From sequence record MK373793.1: a stretch of 43,157 bases of DNA; one strand, 5' to 3'. Position numbers and translations under genes: made by a program. This DNA is from Escherichia phage vB_EcoS_MM01. Shown in pieces: positions 3,112 through 27,340 of this stretch; the first letter of the stretch is position 1; every line of letters starts with the position of its first letter. Under the pieces are notes generated by a model. That model did not search any database, had not been told where the DNA came from, and saw only the letters and a list, made by a program, of their open reading frames with translations.

Positions 3112-3388
3112 ATTGGATTGTTAAAAAAGAGCTTGCATCACTGATTGGAAGTATCTAATATTAATCACGTAGACAGACGAGACCACTAAGTGGTAACGGC
3201 GCACGGAGCGCAACTACTAAGTCCGTAGCTCATTAGGTAGCGTATGCGGCAAATCACTTCCCATTATGAGCTTTATTCTCTTAGGGACTTGTAAGACCTA
3301 GCGCAAATAGTCAATCAAATCGGTCGTAACAAGCGACGCTGGAGCCGTAACCAGCAATCTTCATCTAGCAAGCCTAGCTAAAGATTAT

Positions 3389-3463
3389 GCTCTGTTAGCT
3401 TAATGGAAAAAGCCGCAGCCTTCTAAGCTGTTGATGGTGGTTCGACTCCACCACGGAGCGCCA
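3389..3463 (+). tRNA. tRNA-Arg (anticodon UCU)
   Basis: manual cloverleaf: 7-bp acceptor stem GCTCTGT/ACGGAGC (one G-U), D stem GCTT/AAGC, anticodon stem GCAGC/GCTGT with loop CTTCTAA (U33, UCU, A37), T arm GGTGG-TTCGACT-CCACC, discriminator G, encoded CCA. Confidence 0.85.
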
Positions 3464-3482
3464 AATTAAAGGAGCCCTATCA

Positions 3483-3665
3483 ATGTGGGACGTTAAGTTA
3501 TCAATCAGATTAATGGGCCGTAGTTGCAAGAATTGCACTCAAGAATACATCGCGTCAGTTGCCGCAATCAGCGCTGAGGATGCGGTAGCGAAAGTAAAAG
3601 AGATGTCGGGCGCTGACCCTGACACTCACAAATTCCTAGTAGCTTACGTTCGTGAGCGAAAGTAA
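3483..3665 (+). CDS. hypothetical protein (60 aa)
   Basis: ORF track; AGGAG-like RBS right after the tRNA. Confidence 0.45.
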   Translation: MWDVKLSIRLMGRSCKNCTQEYIASVAAISAEDAVAKVKEMSGADPDTHKFLVAYVRERK

Positions 3666-3709
3666 AAAGTGTTATACCCTCGTTTAATTTTCATCTCTCT
3701 CGTTGTTTT

Positions 3710-3733
3710 AGCCCTCGCTTGAGGGCTTTTTTT
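3710..3733 (+). terminator. rho-independent terminator
   Basis: GC hairpin gccctc-gctt-gagggc followed by T7 run. Confidence 0.6.
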
Positions 3734-3744
3734 CGTCTGCAATA

Positions 3745-3753
3745 TGCTATAAT
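3745..3753 (+). promoter_or_regulatory. extended -10 promoter element (TGcTATAAT)
   Basis: TGnTATAAT 24 nt upstream of terS start; no good -35. Confidence 0.35.
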
Positions 3754-3776
3754 CTGGAATCAACAAAGGAGGATTT

Positions 3777-4283
3777 ATGAGCAAAGCAGCATTAAAGCTA
3801 GGCGAGGGCAACTTCAAGACTCTGTATAACAAGAAGTACGGCGATATCGCAATGGTGGCAGTTAACCGCAAATATACGCCTGAAGAGGTGTTTGATTTCG
3901 CGGTGAGATACTTTACCTGGGCTGAGGGTGAATCAATTAAAGCAATTGAGACGGCGGCATTCCAGGGTGTGGTTAGTGAAAACCTTATCCATAAGCCTAG
4001 AGTTTTTACCTTAACAGGCCTGGCTTTGTTTATGGGCGTCAAGATAGGTAGCTTTGCTCGTTGGCGTTCTGAGCCAGGTTACTCTGACGTCATGGAGTTT
4101 ATTGACAACGTAATATACGAGCAGAAGTATCAGCTAGGCGTTTCTGGTATCATCAACTCCACGATTGTTGGCAAGGAACTTGGAATTGATAAGCCGCAGG
4201 AGATCACCATTAGCAACAACTCCACTGCCAACGACGTTGATAGCATGAAGGCAGCGCTGGAATCTGTGATTGGTAAGCTGTAA
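3777..4283 (+). CDS. terS: terminase small subunit (putative)
   Basis: 168-aa ORF immediately upstream of terL with strong AGGAGG RBS; assignment by position. Confidence 0.5.
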   Translation: MSKAALKLGEGNFKTLYNKKYGDIAMVAVNRKYTPEEVFDFAVRYFTWAEGESIKAIETAAFQGVVSENLIHKPRVFTLTGLALFMGVKIGSFARWRSEPGYSDVMEFIDNVIYEQKYQLGVSGIINSTIVGKELGIDKPQEITISNNSTANDVDSMKAALESVIGKL

Positions 4284-21824: not shown

Positions 21825-21873
21825 TTAGTGTAGAATGGCACAAATGATCAAAACAAACATGAGGCTTTATGAT

Positions 21874-24800
21874 ATGGCTGAAGAGATTAAGATTTATGGC
21901 GCTAAGGGTGGTAGCCAGAAGCAACACCAACCAGTAGAGCAGGAAGACAACCTTATTTCGGTGAACAAGGTTAAGGTATTGCTTGCCGTTGCTGATGGTG
22001 AGGTTGACCCTAATTTCTCCATGAAGGATTTATACCTTGCTGATGTGCCTGTTCAGAACCAGGATAACAGCTACAACTATGAAGGAGTTCGGGCAGAATT
22101 TCGCTCTGGGACTCAGTATCAGGATTACATTGCTGGGCTTGATGGTGCTAACTCAGAGATTCAGGCATCTCGTGAAATCACAAATGATACGCCTTACATC
22201 ATTGCGGTTAATAACAGTCAGCTTTCAGCAATTCGAGTTAAACTATTTTGGCCTCGACTAGTTAAACAGGAAAGCAATGGAGACCTGAATGGTACAACTT
22301 GCGAGTACGCAATTGACTTGTCTGTTAATGGTGGAGCATATCAGGAATACACTCGCGGAGTTGCAAACGGGAAGACAACAACTGGTTACGACCGTAGTAT
22401 CCGTGTAAACCTTCCGGCTGAATTTGATAGCGCGCTAGTTAGAATTCGGAAGATTACGCCTGATTCAACAATTAGCACTCTGGTTAATGGAATGCAGATT
22501 ACAACCTATCAGGAAGTGATTGACGCTAAATTCCGCTATCCGCTTACGGCTCTGGTTTACGTTGAGTTTGGCTCTGACCTGTTCCCTAATGGCATCCCGA
22601 CAATCTCTATCAAGAAGAGATGGAAACTTATTCAGGTTCCAACGAACTATAATCCAGAGACAAGAACTTATAGCGGCACATGGAATGGTCTATTTAAAAT
22701 GGCTTGGTCAAATAACCCTGCGTGGGTTCTTTATGACTTAGTAACAAACCGCCGCTATGGTCTTGACCAGCGAGAGTTGGGTGTAGAGATTGATAAGTGG
22801 GGTCTATACGAAGCCGCGCAATTCTGTGACCAGATGGTGCCGGATGGGAAAGGTGGAATGGAGCCGCGTTACCTGTGCGATATGGTTGTGCAGAATAAAG
22901 TTGAGGCCTACACGCTAATTCGTGATATCTGTTCAATATTCCGTGGCCTGACTTTCTATGATGGCGAAAAGATTGGTATCGTGGTTGATAAACCGCGAAA
23001 CCCGTCTTACATCTTCACTAATGATAACGTTGTAAACGGATTATTCAGCCGCACCTTTGCCAGTGATAAGAGTCTTTACACCACGGCAAACGTTCAGTTT
23101 GATGATGTTGAGAACAACTATCAGCAGGATGTTGAGCCAGTTTTTGAACTCGAGGCTACTCGCCGCTTTGGTTTTAACCCTGTTGATTTAACTGCTATTG
23201 GCTGTACTCGAAGAAGCGAAGCAAACAGGCGCGGTAGGTGGCTTCTAAAAACAAATCTGAGAAGCGAAACTATCAGCTTCACTACCGGACTGGAAGGCAT
23301 GATTCCGATGATTGGCGAGGTTATTGCGGTTAATGACGCAGCATGGTCTAGCAACTATCAATTAAACCTTTCTGGTCGAATCGAATCAGTGCAGGGGTTG
23401 CAGGTTTTTACCCCGTTTAAAGTTGACGCAGCACCTGGTGATAGAATCCTGCTTAACAAGCCTGACGGAAGCCCAGAGGCAAGAACCATTGCCAGCGTTT
23501 CGGAAGATGGTAGAACAATCAACCTTAACACTGCTTTCAGTTTTGTGGCTCAGCCGGATACTGTTTTCGCAATCGATAAGAACAACCTCGCGCTTCAGCA
23601 GTATGTGGTGACCGGGATTCAAAAAGCAGACACTGATGGTCAGGACTCATTTCAATATACGATTACTGCTGTAGAGTACGACCAGAACAAATACGATGAG
23701 ATTGACTACGGCGTTAACATCATTGACCGCCCAACATCAATTGTAGAGCCTGACAGATTATCGCCACCAGAAAACCTGACCGTGTCAAGCTACAGCAAGA
23801 TTGTTCAGGGATTGTCGGTTGAGACAATGGTTATTGGCTGGGATAAGGCGCCATACGCTAAAACATACAATGTTCAGTGGAGAAAAGAGAATGGTAACTG
23901 GATTAACGTACCCAGAACAGCTAGCACAGAAGTTGATATCGAGGGCATTTACGCAGGAATCTATGACGTTAGGGTTCGCAGCGTATCAGATACTGAAAAC
24001 GTGTCTGCATGGTCTGGTATTGTAACAAGAAGCCTTACTGGAAAGATTGGTAAGCCACCAAAGCTGCAGGTTATAACGGCGACTGATGACGAAGTTTTCG
24101 GAATTAGAGTTAAGTGGGGCTTTGCAGATGGTAGTGGCGACACTGCATACACAGAGCTTCAGCAGGTAGAGGACAATGGCGATGGCACATACAATCCAGA
24201 CAATGCAAGTTTACTTACTTTGGTTCCGTATCCTCAATATGAATATTGGCACTCTCCAATACAACCGGGTAAGGTTATTTGGTATAGGGCAAGAATCATA
24301 GACAGAATCGGAAACACTTCTGATTGGACTGATTTTGTTAGAGGTATGAGTACTGACGATGCGCAAAAGATAGCTGAGTACATTAAGGTTGATATAGAGC
24401 AGTCTGAAGGTTTTAAATACCTACAGCAGAATGCAATTGAGAAAAACCAGGACATTCAGAATCAAGCTGAGGCAATTATCGAGAACGCGTTGGCTAATGA
24501 TGGTGATGTTCGAAGAATGACAAAGGAGAATGGCAAACGTAAGGCTGAATATGTTCAGGCGGTTAATCTTATAGCTAATGAAACTGAGGCGCGTGTAGAG
24601 GCTCTCACGCAGCTTAAAGCGCAGATAGATGACGAGGTTGTGGCGTCAATTAGTGAAGTTCAGACAGCGCTAGCCACAGAGACCGAAGCAAGGACTACAG
24701 CTGACACAGCATTATCTGCAAGATTGGGTGATAATGAAGCAGCTCTAAACCAGAAGCTAGACGCTTTCTCTAATGCTACATCAACTGGCGTACAGTACGG

Positions 24801-25230
24801 AATAAGCCTTGGTCTTAAATACAATGGACAGACCTATTCATCTGGCATGAGTATGGAGCTAGTTGGCACTGGTGGAAATGTTCGCAGTCAGTTCATATTT
24901 GACGCAAACAGATTCGCCATAAGTAATGGCATTGGTTCTGGTTCCGGTCAGTGGCAATTGCCTTTCGTTGTCGAGAATGGGAGCGTAATCATCCAAAGCG
25001 CAGTTATCGGCGATGGTTCAATCAGTAACGCGAAGATTGGTAACTTTATTCAGTCAAACAATTACGTGGCTAACACTACCGGTTGGAGACTTGATAAAGG
25101 TGGCACATTCGAGAATAACGGGTCAACACCTGGTGAAGGTAGAATGAAGCAGACTAACCAAACAATTTCTGTAGCAGATGCAAATGGAAGGCTTCGTGTT
25201 CAGATTGGTCGTTTAACTGGAGTATACTAA
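21874..25230 (+). CDS. central tail fibre / host specificity protein (lambda gpJ-like)
   Basis: N-terminus GAKGGSQKQHQP...LISVNKVKVLLAVADGEVD and internal TPDSTISTL...YPLTALVYVEF match the lambda J pattern; start chosen at ATG 21874 with GAGG RBS (track 21835). Confidence 0.85.
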   Translation: MAEEIKIYGAKGGSQKQHQPVEQEDNLISVNKVKVLLAVADGEVDPNFSMKDLYLADVPVQNQDNSYNYEGVRAEFRSGTQYQDYIAGLDGANSEIQASREITNDTPYIIAVNNSQLSAIRVKLFWPRLVKQESNGDLNGTTCEYAIDLSVNGGAYQEYTRGVANGKTTTGYDRSIRVNLPAEFDSALVRIRKITPDSTISTLVNGMQITTYQEVIDAKFRYPLTALVYVEFGSDLFPNGIPTISIKKRWKLIQVPTNYNPETRTYSGTWNGLFKMAWSNNPAWVLYDLVTNRRYGLDQRELGVEIDKWGLYEAAQFCDQMVPDGKGGMEPRYLCDMVVQNKVEAYTLIRDICSIFRGLTFYDGEKIGIVVDKPRNPSYIFTNDNVVNGLFSRTFASDKSLYTTANVQFDDVENNYQQDVEPVFELEATRRFGFNPVDLTAIGCTRRSEANRRGRWLLKTNLRSETISFTTGLEGMIPMIGEVIAVNDAAWSSNYQLNLSGRIESVQGLQVFTPFKVDAAPGDRILLNKPDGSPEARTIASVSEDGRTINLNTAFSFVAQPDTVFAIDKNNLALQQYVVTGIQKADTDGQDSFQYTITAVEYDQNKYDEIDYGVNIIDRPTSIVEPDRLSPPENLTVSSYSKIVQGLSVETMVIGWDKAPYAKTYNVQWRKENGNWINVPRTASTEVDIEGIYAGIYDVRVRSVSDTENVSAWSGIVTRSLTGKIGKPPKLQVITATDDEVFGIRVKWGFADGSGDTAYTELQQVEDNGDGTYNPDNASLLTLVPYPQYEYWHSPIQPGKVIWYRARIIDRIGNTSDWTDFVRGMSTDDAQKIAEYIKVDIEQSEGFKYLQQNAIEKNQDIQNQAEAIIENALANDGDVRRMTKENGKRKAEYVQAVNLIANETEARVEALTQLKAQIDDEVVASISEVQTALATETEARTTADTALSARLGDNEAALNQKLDAFSNATSTGVQYGISLGLKYNGQTYSSGMSMELVGTGGNVRSQFIFDANRFAISNGIGSGSGQWQLPFVVENGSVIIQSAVIGDGSISNAKIGNFIQSNNYVANTTGWRLDKGGTFENNGSTPGEGRMKQTNQTISVADANGRLRVQIGRLTGVY

Positions 25231-25277
25231 GTGATAGAATTGGCAAATGGATTTGCCTACTTCAATTGGAGATAATT

Positions 25278-25583
25278 ATGGCTGAGTATGGAATTGCAAC
25301 ATATGATGCAAATGGTAATTACAATAACTACGGGATTAAGCCGGTTACGGTTGTCGCGGTTGTTGATTTAGCGGCAGGTCAAACTTCCGGATCATACACA
25401 TACACAATACCTAGCGGTTATAAGGTTGGGTACTTTATAACGTTAGATGAGGGGGCAGTTAATAATGGCAGGTACATAGTGGCGAGTGGTAACTCTATAA
25501 CCATTGTTCCGGGAAATGCTGCCGCAGATGGTTACTACCCAGCGACTAAGTGTAAAATGGTAGTTTATTTGGAGAAAGTATAA
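25278..25583 (+). CDS. small tail-tip associated protein (paralogue 1)
   Basis: ATG 25278 with GGAG RBS (track start 25266 is TTG); N-terminus MAEYGIATYDANGN resembles next gene. Confidence 0.45.
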   Translation: MAEYGIATYDANGNYNNYGIKPVTVVAVVDLAAGQTSGSYTYTIPSGYKVGYFITLDEGAVNNGRYIVASGNSITIVPGNAAADGYYPATKCKMVVYLEKV

Positions 25584-26254
25584 TGGCAGATTATGGCGCG
25601 ATAATTGATGTTAACGGAAACCCATTCATCACCCCCGCTTCAACTCCTTTTTGTCTTTACCGAAAGTATACTTTTCAGTCTTCGGGTGATTCTGCGGCGC
25701 ACAGTGTAACTCAATACTTACCTTTCAATTCAAGCTATCCAGTTAGCGTTTTCATTAAAACAAGCGCGCCAGGACAAGGTGTGGCAGTGATAGCATACAA
25801 CATAACAGAAGGTCCAAACGCAGGAACAATATATATAAATGGCACAAACTATGCGGGTCAATCATTCACATTGACGGCCTATGTTTTCGCTATATTCCCG
25901 CAAAATCTGCCAGATTGGGGAATGGCGATATGGGATGCGAAAGGCGATCTTGTACTGACCAACGAGAGCAAGGTGCTAAGCGACCTTTTTACTGTTAATG
26001 GAAGAGGTATAGATATTGACTCAACTTATCAAGGCAGCGTTGCGGTTTGCCCAGCGGCACTTGGCGCCCTTAACGTTTACCAGGTCCAGAATGGACAGCA
26101 AATAATAAGGTCCGCTACTGCTGGCGTTTCCTGTAGGTACAATGGATCAACAACAAGAATAAATGCAGTTCCATTGATAAACGGAACGCAGGCGTCAGGA
26201 GGAACAACCAACGGAGCAAGGGTTACGGCAATTTATACAGCAGCATACGACTAA
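25583..26254 (+). CDS. small tail-tip associated protein (paralogue 2)
   Basis: 223 aa, N-terminus MADYGAIIDVNGNP; ATGA-coupled to previous gene. Confidence 0.45.
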   Translation: MADYGAIIDVNGNPFITPASTPFCLYRKYTFQSSGDSAAHSVTQYLPFNSSYPVSVFIKTSAPGQGVAVIAYNITEGPNAGTIYINGTNYAGQSFTLTAYVFAIFPQNLPDWGMAIWDAKGDLVLTNESKVLSDLFTVNGRGIDIDSTYQGSVAVCPAALGALNVYQVQNGQQIIRSATAGVSCRYNGSTTRINAVPLINGTQASGGTTNGARVTAIYTAAYD

Positions 26255-26279
26255 AGCCCCTTCCGGGGCTTTTCATTTA

Positions 26280-26501
26280 TCAACCTCCACAATCGTGGTC
26301 TTTGAAATTCCGGTCAGAGACGTACTGAAATGAGAATGGATATCCAGCCCTAAGTAAAAGCTCCTCACCGCGTTTCTGCGTACCAAAAATATAAACCGAG
26401 TAATTCATCCCGCCTGACTCATAAACAGCCGTACAAGTGCGTTCTGGCATCGTAGAGCACCCACCTAACACCATTGCCGCGATAACGATTAATTTTTTCA
26501 T
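26280..26501 (-). CDS. lipoprotein (superinfection-exclusion candidate)
   Basis: internal ATG of track ORF 26280..26555 gives MKKLIVIAAMVLGGC lipobox; AGGTGA RBS. Confidence 0.65.
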   Translation of the reverse strand: MKKLIVIAAMVLGGCSTMPERTCTAVYESGGMNYSVYIFGTQKRGEELLLRAGYPFSFQYVSDRNFKDHDCGG

Positions 26502-26511
26502 CTTATTCACC

Positions 26512-26616
26512 TTAGAACCCTTTAAAGTTGGAAGCCAGAAGAAGAACCCAAACAAAGAAACCAGTTACAGCAGCGCCGAAGGTGAAGGCCATTACGTTGG
26601 TTGCGAAGTTAGTCAT
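26512..26616 (-). CDS. small membrane peptide (34 aa)
   Basis: MTNFATNVMAFTFGAAVTGFFVWVLLLASNFKGF; preceded on minus strand by motif A/B unit. Confidence 0.4.
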   Translation of the reverse strand: MTNFATNVMAFTFGAAVTGFFVWVLLLASNFKGF

Positions 26617-26681
26617 TTTTGAATCCTTAGTAAGTATTTTTCGTTTCGATGGAGTAATAGTACCGCATCCTTGCGGATTGT

Positions 26682-26701
26682 CTTTAGCAATTCGTGCTAT
26701 T
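26682..26701 (-). repeat. junction motif A copy (aatagcacgaattgctaaag on minus strand)
   Basis: supplies stop codon of upstream methyltransferase-like ORF; motif B at 26641-26650. Confidence 0.6.
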
Positions 26702-27340
26702 CGCCAAGAATACAGCTCTTGCAAATCCACGAGGTGTAAGACTGCGAATTACCTTCGTCTTCTTGCTCTTGCCACCGAGTTTCTTATATTGGTCAGAGAA
26801 ACCATCATTAACATCAACAGGAAGCAACTCAGGCCACTTAAATCCATTACCAGACCAAATGCACGTCTTCTTAGGGTATGCGTCCCTTGACTTTATTAGG
26901 TCGCTAAAAAACGGGTGTAAATCATCTTCAGGCAAGTATCCACCAAACTCGTAAGGGTGGAATGTGTTATCAGGCTTTCGCCACAGAGATGACAGTACAC
27001 TGATTGGATTCTCAATCATATAAGGCACGCCGTACTTCTCAGCCAGGTTAAAAGCAACCTTGCAAGTTTCTGCCGCTTCAGTCTGGAAGTTTGGGTTAGC
27101 TTGGCGCTTACGTTCAAAATGCCTTGACCCACTCACAGCCAAATCAGTGCATGGTGGGAAAGCCAATATGAAATCAGGTTTCACATCAAAATCGAAGTTT
27201 GCATCAATCCATGCGTTAACGTACTTAATGTTATCGTGCTCAACCTTCGCATTCAAATCGCCGTAACTACCGTGGTCAGACTCGTCAAAGTTGAAGCAGT
27301 AACAAGTGTGACCAGCCTCAGCCCTAGTTAGCGCAGCAGA
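26684..27340 (-). pseudogene. cytosine-C5 DNA methyltransferase-like ORF, apparently 5'-truncated
   Basis: PDFILAFPPCTDLAVSG resembles C5-MTase motif IV (PC dipeptide) and MIENP the ENV motif, but no FxGxG motif I; frame open to 27340 with no ATG/GTG, only TTG at 27256. Confidence 0.45.

Follow-up and report, generated by a model that had tools for sequence, protein, structure and literature searches.

A putative receptor-binding protein pair encoded behind the J-like tail fibre gene of Escherichia phage vB_EcoS_MM01

We analysed two small open reading frames (ORFs), ORF1 and ORF2, which follow the J-like central tail fibre gene in Escherichia phage vB_EcoS_MM01 (Drexlerviridae; MK373793.1). 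The whole 43,157-bp genome served as the stretch of DNA under study and is referred to below as the window. We propose, with a probability of about 0.8, that the products of ORF1 and ORF2 form a receptor-binding module at the fibre tip, which would be a version of the PyoF11/PyoF12 pair of F-type pyocins, of the FhuA type and belonging to the Escherichia coli T1 group. The two genes were assigned to this known module because of their homology to the T1 genes, the published descriptions of the locus, and the literature on pyocins (Saha et al. and the work on the F7 pyocin). In sequence they are new MM01 alleles of a module that is already known, and the tentatively new point is a reading of the module as three related units, which is discussed below.

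An earlier note on this DNA had placed two ORFs after a J-like gene, and the coordinates and reading frames it gave were all correct (Table 1). The best start of ORF1 was the ATG at 25278, with a GGAG at 25268-25271, and its stop codon (25581-25583) shares one nucleotide with the ATG of ORF2 at 25583; ORF2 ends at 26254 and is 100% identical to MM01_00038. The C-terminal part of the J-like protein matched the Pfam family PF09327 (Phage_Tail_Tip; E 4.8e-38), and its homologue in JulesPiccard (Bas03), a member of Drexlerviridae and the nearest annotated relative at the locus with 77% nucleotide identity, is annotated as 'J-like tail tip protein'.

According to Saha et al. (10.1101/2021.02.16.431561), PyoF11 and PyoF12 are a small and a larger protein encoded directly 3' of the central fibre gene. 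They occur in every F-type pyocin and in over 50 phages, E. coli T1 and N15 explicitly among them; the T1 and N15 pairs are direct homologues of ORF1 and ORF2. Both pyocin proteins are essential for killing, and they vary in step with the final 60 residues of the fibre; 'Specificity Module 1' was defined there as the last ~60 amino acids of the PyoF10 fibre together with PyoF11 and PyoF12. MM01 has the same arrangement, with two plus-strand genes directly 3' of J and a J C-terminus that varies together with the pair. The last ~45-60 residues of J are kept across unrelated phage lineages, in the pair carriers MM01, T1, HK022, Pubbukkers (Dhillonvirus) and Klebsiella phage Alina, and they differ in Rtp, a phage of the LptD type. 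The Phage_Tail_Tip domain, which precedes this tip, was found in 1654 phage records, including those of Pseudomonas, Burkholderia, Ralstonia and Aeromonas phages.

In small siphoviruses, the hypervariable locus after gpJ is the receptor-specificity locus, whose alleles match FhuA, BtuB, LptD and YncD and come with cognate exclusion lipoproteins; FhuA has been tied to the allele of the MM01 type (Maffei et al. 2021, PMC8594841; 10.64898/2026.04.02.716166). The FhuA-type 'bona fide RBP locus' (RBP, receptor-binding protein) is reported for Drexlerviridae, Dhillonvirus and lambdoid phages (T1, N15, HK022, phi80, ES18; PMC8594841; Wietzorrek et al. 2006 in PMC13164509; 10.64898/2026.04.02.716166). 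The position and order of ORF1 and ORF2 are as in this locus and in the PyoF11/PyoF12 pair, in agreement with a receptor-binding role at the J-like fibre tip; the earlier note had suggested a receptor-binding accessory or fibre module.

Members of the ORF1 family were present in 344 phage records and those of the ORF2 family in 347, with identical genus breakdowns, and the records with the pair span Drexlerviridae, Dhillonvirus, lambdoid Hendrixvirinae (HK022 and mEp phages) and Klebsiella Webervirus. The locus was syntenic in JulesPiccard, T1, Phleasolo, HK022, Pubbukkers and Alina, and the order of J, small gene and large gene on one strand was seen in MM01 and in all eight other phages examined. 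ORF2 is 54% identical to its T1 counterpart and 80% identical to the nearest database protein. In the PHROG collection ORF1 was assigned to phrog_557 (E 4.9e-26) and ORF2 to phrog_425; searches of Pfam gave no match for either at E <= 1, and sequence searches of the PDB gave none for either. The order of J, a gene of ~100 amino acids and a gene of ~220-245 amino acids also occurs in Xanthomonas phage phiL7, Burkholderia phage phiE125, Pseudomonas phage BR123a and the N4-like phage phCDa, and profile alignments (hhalign) of ORF1 and ORF2 against the pairs of Pseudomonas, Burkholderia and Xanthomonas phages were weak and co-linear (P 0.001-0.15).

Several of these records showed features of their own. 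In Pseudomonas phage vB_Pae_BR123a (L010, 2868-4751), the PyoF12-like gene is apparently split by a mobile-element gene (3192-4172, minus strand), which leaves an N-terminal ORF of 64 amino acids and a C-terminal ORF of 162 amino acids. The Pseudomonas podovirus phCDa (Schitoviridae; L011, 1292-3807) encodes a 429-amino-acid fibre with a J-like C-terminus, followed by genes of 107 and 220 amino acids and by a convergent gene for an 81-amino-acid lipoprotein-like product (MKYVIVLIGLALLYGC…), so that an exclusion lipoprotein may be encoded there too. Another eight records give Campylobacter jejuni as the host of the phage; these records, among them MG065688.1 (A110b), MG065679.1 (A13a) and MG065648.1 (A144), carry T1-like J, ORF1 and ORF2 genes with up to 83% nucleotide identity to MM01; they look like E. 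coli T1-like phages, and their host label is doubtful. In ES18 (NC_006949.1, 23299-23457) only the first 53 residues of ORF1 were matched, overlapping the end of the annotated central fibre gene, which suggests that the small partner gene is rearranged or truncated there.

Both proteins start with the common pattern M-A-[E/D]-Y-G…D-x-N-G-N. Their N-termini (MAEYGIATYDANGN in ORF1 and MADYGAIIDVNGNP in ORF2) align over 14 positions, 9 of them identical, with a single gap (E 0.053 in BLASTP, P 0.005 in hhalign), so that the similarity claimed earlier stands, although the wording 'near-identical' was somewhat generous for such an alignment. On the sequences, the match exceeds chance. The pattern ^M[AS]x?[YFW]G was found at only two of the 387 Met-initiated candidate starts in the window, those of ORF1 and ORF2, and a hidden Markov model (HMM) of the ORF1-family N-terminus, run against the 300 six-frame ORFs of the window, ranked ORF2 highest apart from ORF1 itself (E 0.019, as against 5.2 for the hit that followed). 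The motif is nearly invariant across 34 sequences of the ORF1 family and 54 of the ORF2 family. A third copy, missed by the earlier note, lies within ORF2 (LPDWGMAIWDAKGD, residues 109-122) and scores higher against the N-terminus of ORF1 than any other match (E 0.021 in BLASTP, P 4e-4 in hhalign). In phiL7, phiE125, BR123a and phCDa the motif occupies the same three places, namely the N-terminus of the small protein, the N-terminus of the large protein and one position within the latter; in BR123a the internal copy lies on the C-terminal fragment of the split gene. We also considered a C-terminal hairpin of J (ISVADANGRLRVQIG; LRAYDANGVLRAQFG in phiL7) as a fourth copy, for which the likeness, noticed by eye, is unproven: the ORF1 motif HMM gave E 7.8 and thus no support, a motif HMM built from several lineages scored negative, and the C-terminal hairpin was the top segment in only 2 of 10 fibres.

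To the sequence data we added structural models from AlphaFold2 (AF2), obtained with family alignments. The ORF1 model is a seven-stranded beta-sandwich with strands between residues 24 and 100 (predicted local distance difference test score, pLDDT, 85.7), and the ORF2 model is a two-domain all-beta protein (pLDDT 89.4; predicted template modelling score 0.85). The first ~20 residues of each protein, which bear the motif, were modelled with low confidence and without structure, and the internal copy of ORF2 as a well-ordered hairpin with strands 115-117 and 123-126. In its fold the ORF2 model resembles the RBP of phage Oekolampad (DUF6453, PF20051), solved on LptDE (PDB 9rpt, chain 9rpt_C; 10.1101/2025.07.07.663478). 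In a Foldseek comparison with viral models, ORF2 matched uncharacterised proteins of 204-307 amino acids (17 at E <= 1e-3), and one of 555 amino acids, from phages of Pectobacterium, Pseudomonas, Proteus, Acinetobacter, Xanthomonas and Achromobacter; the matches of ORF1 to viral models were weak.

Conservation was distributed unevenly along both families. In ORF1, the arm (residues 1-23) had a mean column identity of 0.88, the highest of any 23-residue window of the family, as compared with 0.65 for the body (residues 24-101). In ORF2, the values were 0.81 for residues 1-25, 0.49 for 26-95, 0.83 for 96-146, the most conserved region of the family, which includes the internal copy, and 0.59 for 147-210. 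The motif-bearing segments are the constant parts and the sandwich bodies the variable ones. Disordered conserved arms combined with variable bodies fit a conserved attachment element with variable distal parts, much as the earlier note had envisaged; the term 'domain' which it used for the shared element was too large for a hairpin-type motif of about 14-20 residues.

The view that ORF1 and ORF2 are paralogues which arose by duplication found no support at the level of sequence. They diverge after the N-terminus, as had been stated: BLASTP and profile-profile alignments, of whole families and of halves, covered only 12-14 columns, and the ORF1 profile, run exhaustively as an HMM against 1.84 billion representatives, recovered no protein of the ORF2 family. 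Since neither these alignments nor this search gave significant similarity beyond ~14 residues, the very outcome that the earlier note had named as refuting its reading, paralogy is not demonstrated by sequence. The motif codons of the two genes differ at synonymous sites, which excludes a recent duplication of DNA. Foldseek placed ORF1 only weakly on ORF2-like proteins (TM-score 0.41-0.45, E about 0.1). The ORF1 profile search returned relatives of ~100 amino acids and some giant proteins with immunoglobulin (Ig)-like repeats, namely bacterial surface proteins with LapA/Big-type Ig-like domains (P0165, P0171, P0173, P0192 and others), with up to 19 matching stretches per protein. We do not take these as a clue to the function of ORF1 and read them as a generic Ig-like sandwich or compositional bias.

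The alternative which survives best is that ORF1 is not a component of the virion and serves in assembly, helping ORF2 or the J tip to fold or mature in the manner of the tail-fibre assembly proteins whose genes follow those of fibres, with only ORF2 on the particle. Saha et al. initially allowed for 'binding to it or acting as chaperones' in the case of the pyocin proteins (10.1101/2021.02.16.431561); ORF1 is small and appears translationally coupled to ORF2, the locus of the LptD type needs only one RBP gene, and the KanT1 paper describes one phage species without ORF1 (PMC13164509). We nevertheless consider this role rather improbable. According to the F7 pyocin preprint, mass spectrometry revealed PyoF11 as well as PyoF12 in the particles, and AlphaFold 3 placed the two on the C-terminus of the fibre (PMC12874032). 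Moreover, the conserved arm common to ORF1 and ORF2 is hard to explain for a transient chaperone, and ORF1 is predicted to be a stable Ig-like sandwich. By analogy with the pyocin particles, we would expect both ORF1 and ORF2 in the virion.

On the other side of the pair, convergent with ORF2, lies a minus-strand gene for a Cor-like lipoprotein with the lipobox LGGC, whose counterpart in JulesPiccard is annotated as Cor; the start listed for this ORF, a TTG at 26555, is 18 codons too early. Thus the locus also has the cognate lipoprotein of the FhuA type (26280-26501, minus strand). Cor is associated with FhuA-dependent phages (PMC13164509; PMC8594841), and since a Cor-like lipoprotein is present, FhuA is predicted as the terminal receptor of MM01. 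In the KanT1 paper, the cassette 'outer membrane protein, membrane associated protein, Cor' marks FhuA-dependent phages, and no structural matches were reported for the first two proteins of the cassette (PMC13164509). [quoted passage not shown] We regard this as very unlikely. In neither protein did we detect a signal peptide, lipobox, transmembrane or other hydrophobic segment (maximal mean Kyte-Doolittle hydropathy over 19 residues about 1.0-1.1); the N-termini are acidic and free of lysine and arginine, and the models are all-beta and soluble-like. Both genes lie directly 3' of the late tail genes and on their strand, whereas cor lies on the other one, and some phages, such as Alina of Klebsiella and phiE125 of Burkholderia, carry the pair and lack cor. 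Finally, the fold of ORF2 matches a solved RBP, and the pyocin homologues are particle components needed for killing (PMC12874032; 10.1101/2021.02.16.431561).

The receptor-binding module proposed above may have a more general architecture. Rtp44, a DUF6453 protein of phage Rtp, begins with a related motif (MAQGIYIDLNDGRKP), of which two more copies, likewise conserved, lie around residues 115 and 207; its length of 311 amino acids compares with 324 for ORF1 and ORF2 together. The motif heads all three units in the FhuA-type pair, in DUF6453 and in the phiL7 pair, and by eye also in phiE125, BR123a and phCDa. We cut three modules (the FhuA-type pair, Rtp44 and the phiL7 pair) into nine units and aligned them all against all with hhalign, with reversed-column profiles as controls; an alignment was counted as start-to-start if the best local alignment began within the first 12 residues of both units. 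This was the case for 16 of the 36 unit pairs, against 2 of 72 controls, and P < 0.01 was reached by 8 of the 36 pairs and by 2 of the 72 controls, with the reservation that the individual alignments were weak and that the reversed control is imperfect, the motif being roughly palindromic. The results suggest three units that are split into ORF1 (one) and ORF2 (two) and fused in the single chain of DUF6453, and the units may start with a motif of the form G-phi-x-phi-aromatic-D-x-x-G-x-phi-phi-phi. As a tentative extension, for which we see distinctly less than even odds, the module could be a pseudo-trimer of three hairpin-led beta-sandwich units that dock one-to-one on the chains of the J tip.

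The same comparison bears on the possibility that the two N-termini are alike by coincidence, or because the regions of translation initiation are similar, with no role at the protein level. In favour of it, the two sequences match only weakly when compared directly (E 0.02-0.05 in BLASTP, E 0.3-0.5 in reciprocal searches with motif HMMs), and both genes have the same Shine-Dalgarno context TTGGAGA. Yet this explanation can hardly account for a protein-level conservation kept despite synonymous differences, for a motif that exceeds every other segment of ORF1 in conservation and ranks with the best-kept segments of ORF2, for its recurrence inside ORF2 away from any start codon, or for its presence at the same three places in lineages without detectable sequence similarity, with the excess of start-to-start alignments over the reversed controls.

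Several points weigh against the assignment of ORF1 and ORF2 to a fibre-tip receptor-binding module. The evidence from MM01 itself consists of sequence and monomer models. At the level of sequence, ORF2 matches neither DUF6453 nor any chain in the PDB. The identity of ORF1 and ORF2 to PyoF11 and PyoF12 is presumably very low; the link to the pyocins runs through the published homology of the T1 proteins. In the cryo-electron microscopy study of the T1 tail tip, the distal fibre and these proteins were not resolved (PMC11945409). The KanT1 paper further describes one species of Tempevirinae, among phages described as BtuB users, with Cor and an ORF2-like gene and without an ORF1-like one (PMC13164509); the ORF2 family may therefore not be strictly specific for FhuA. 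For MM01, the allele of the locus makes FhuA the probable target of ORF2. Lewis et al. 2023 took the J-like protein itself as the RBP and did not address the small genes (PMC10373560).

If the receptor-binding module is as we propose, ORF1 and ORF2 would be made late, together with the tail genes, and probably in a translationally coupled manner owing to the 1-nt overlap of stop and start codons. Both proteins would hang on the allele-specific last ~45-60 residues of the trimeric J protein, the conserved N-terminal arms and the related hairpin of ORF2 being the most likely docking elements, and attachment would thus proceed through the motif. ORF2 would be the actual RBP, with a fold like that of the LptD binder of Oekolampad and with variable beta-sandwich surfaces contacting FhuA, and ORF1 its small beta-sandwich partner. 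After infection, the convergently encoded Cor would block FhuA against further phages.

Table 1. Positions of the putative fibre-tip locus in the window (phage vB_EcoS_MM01).
Feature	Position	Strand	Remarks
J-like central tail fibre / tail tip protein	21835..25230	+	1131 amino acids; presumed anchor of the module
J C-terminal tip, last ~45 residues (…GWRLDKGGTFENNGSTPGEGRMKQTNQTISVADANGRLRVQIGRLTGVY)	25093..25227	+	allele-specific; travels with the ORF1/ORF2 pair
ORF1, small PyoF11-like partner (phrog_557)	25278..25583	+	101 amino acids
ORF1 N-terminal arm, motif copy 1 (MAEYGIATYDANGNYNNYGIKP)	25278..25343	+	most conserved window of the family; low model confidence
ORF2, PyoF12-like putative RBP proper (phrog_425)	25583..26254	+	223 amino acids; predicted FhuA binder
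ORF2 N-terminal arm, motif copy 2 (MADYGAIIDVNGNPFITPASTPFC)	25583..25654	+	conservation 0.81; monomer model with pLDDT 46-55
ORF2 internal motif copy 3 (LPDWGMAIWDAKGDLVLT, residues 109-126)	25907..25960	+	beta-hairpin heading the C-terminal domain
GC-rich terminator-like hairpin (AAAGCCCCTTCCGGGGCTTT) between convergent ORF2 and cor	26253..26272	.	terminator scan
Cor-like superinfection-exclusion lipoprotein (MKKLIVIAAMVLGGC…)	26280..26501	-	73 amino acids; similarity to T1 and JulesPiccard Cor; lipobox

Two further minus-strand ORFs lie beyond the locus. The small ORF at 26512-26730, directly upstream of cor, has a hydrophobic C-terminal end (…AFTFGAAVTGFFVWVLLLASNF) and takes the position of bas03_0032 in JulesPiccard and of a 'putative lipoprotein' in Phleasolo. 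The 190-amino-acid product of the ORF at 26687-27256 resembles the C-5 cytosine DNA methylase family of Pfam only below the threshold (E 0.13; 12 bits, where the cutoff is 22 bits), and no gene is annotated at the equivalent position in JulesPiccard.

ORF1 and ORF2, the last ~50 residues of J and cor together make up a cassette on which the choice of outer-membrane protein by the phage most likely depends, and these are therefore the parts to read when a receptor is to be predicted and the parts to swap for re-targeting. Database labels such as 'outer membrane protein', 'membrane associated protein' and 'hypothetical' are misleading for the pair and could be corrected. The repeated hairpin motif is a concrete and mutable candidate for the joint between a trimeric fibre and a detachable receptor binder, which concerns T1-like and lambdoid phages as well as F-type pyocins. 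If the three-unit architecture were true, it would account for the presence of one asymmetric binder, directed at a monomeric outer-membrane protein, on a fibre with three-fold symmetry, and the FhuA-, LptD- and PyoF11/12-type binders, unrelated in sequence, would be split and fused versions of one ancient design.

With the pb5/Llp system of phage T5, the proposed module shares the principle of a non-trimeric RBP held non-covalently where a trimeric central fibre ends, FhuA as the (here predicted) receptor, and a lipoprotein which blocks FhuA. However, pb5 is a single RBP of 640 amino acids, unrelated in sequence and encoded elsewhere in the genome, and we claim no homology. The DUF6453 binders are comparable to ORF2 in the modelled fold, but neither ORF1 nor ORF2 matched the DUF6453 family in Pfam (the control Rtp44 did, 1.4e-113), and Rtp44 showed no detectable sequence homology to the ORF2 family (hhalign probability 0.4%). 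In that system a single RBP of 311 amino acids is encoded on the opposite strand, as against the pair of 101 and 223 amino acids in MM01, its receptor is LptD and not FhuA, and the sequence of the J tip differs.

The PyoF11/PyoF12 and ORF1/ORF2 pairs are alike in the small-then-larger order, in being co-directional with and directly 3' of the fibre gene, in the co-variation with the fibre tip, and in their PDB neighbours, the receptor-binding domains of Pam1 and of the R-pyocin fibre. They differ in that the killing spectra of F-type pyocins correlate with lipopolysaccharide serotype, whereas the target of ORF1 and ORF2 is probably a protein receptor (FhuA), and in that the phage locus, unlike the pyocins, is accompanied by the Cor lipoprotein. 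The shared motif and its internal third copy are not mentioned in the available portions of the two pyocin reports (Saha et al.; PMC12874032). Although the MM01 alleles have diverged from those of the known FhuA-type locus, MM01 carries the same set of small, large and cor genes together with the J-tip allele, and JulesPiccard (Bas03) is arranged likewise.

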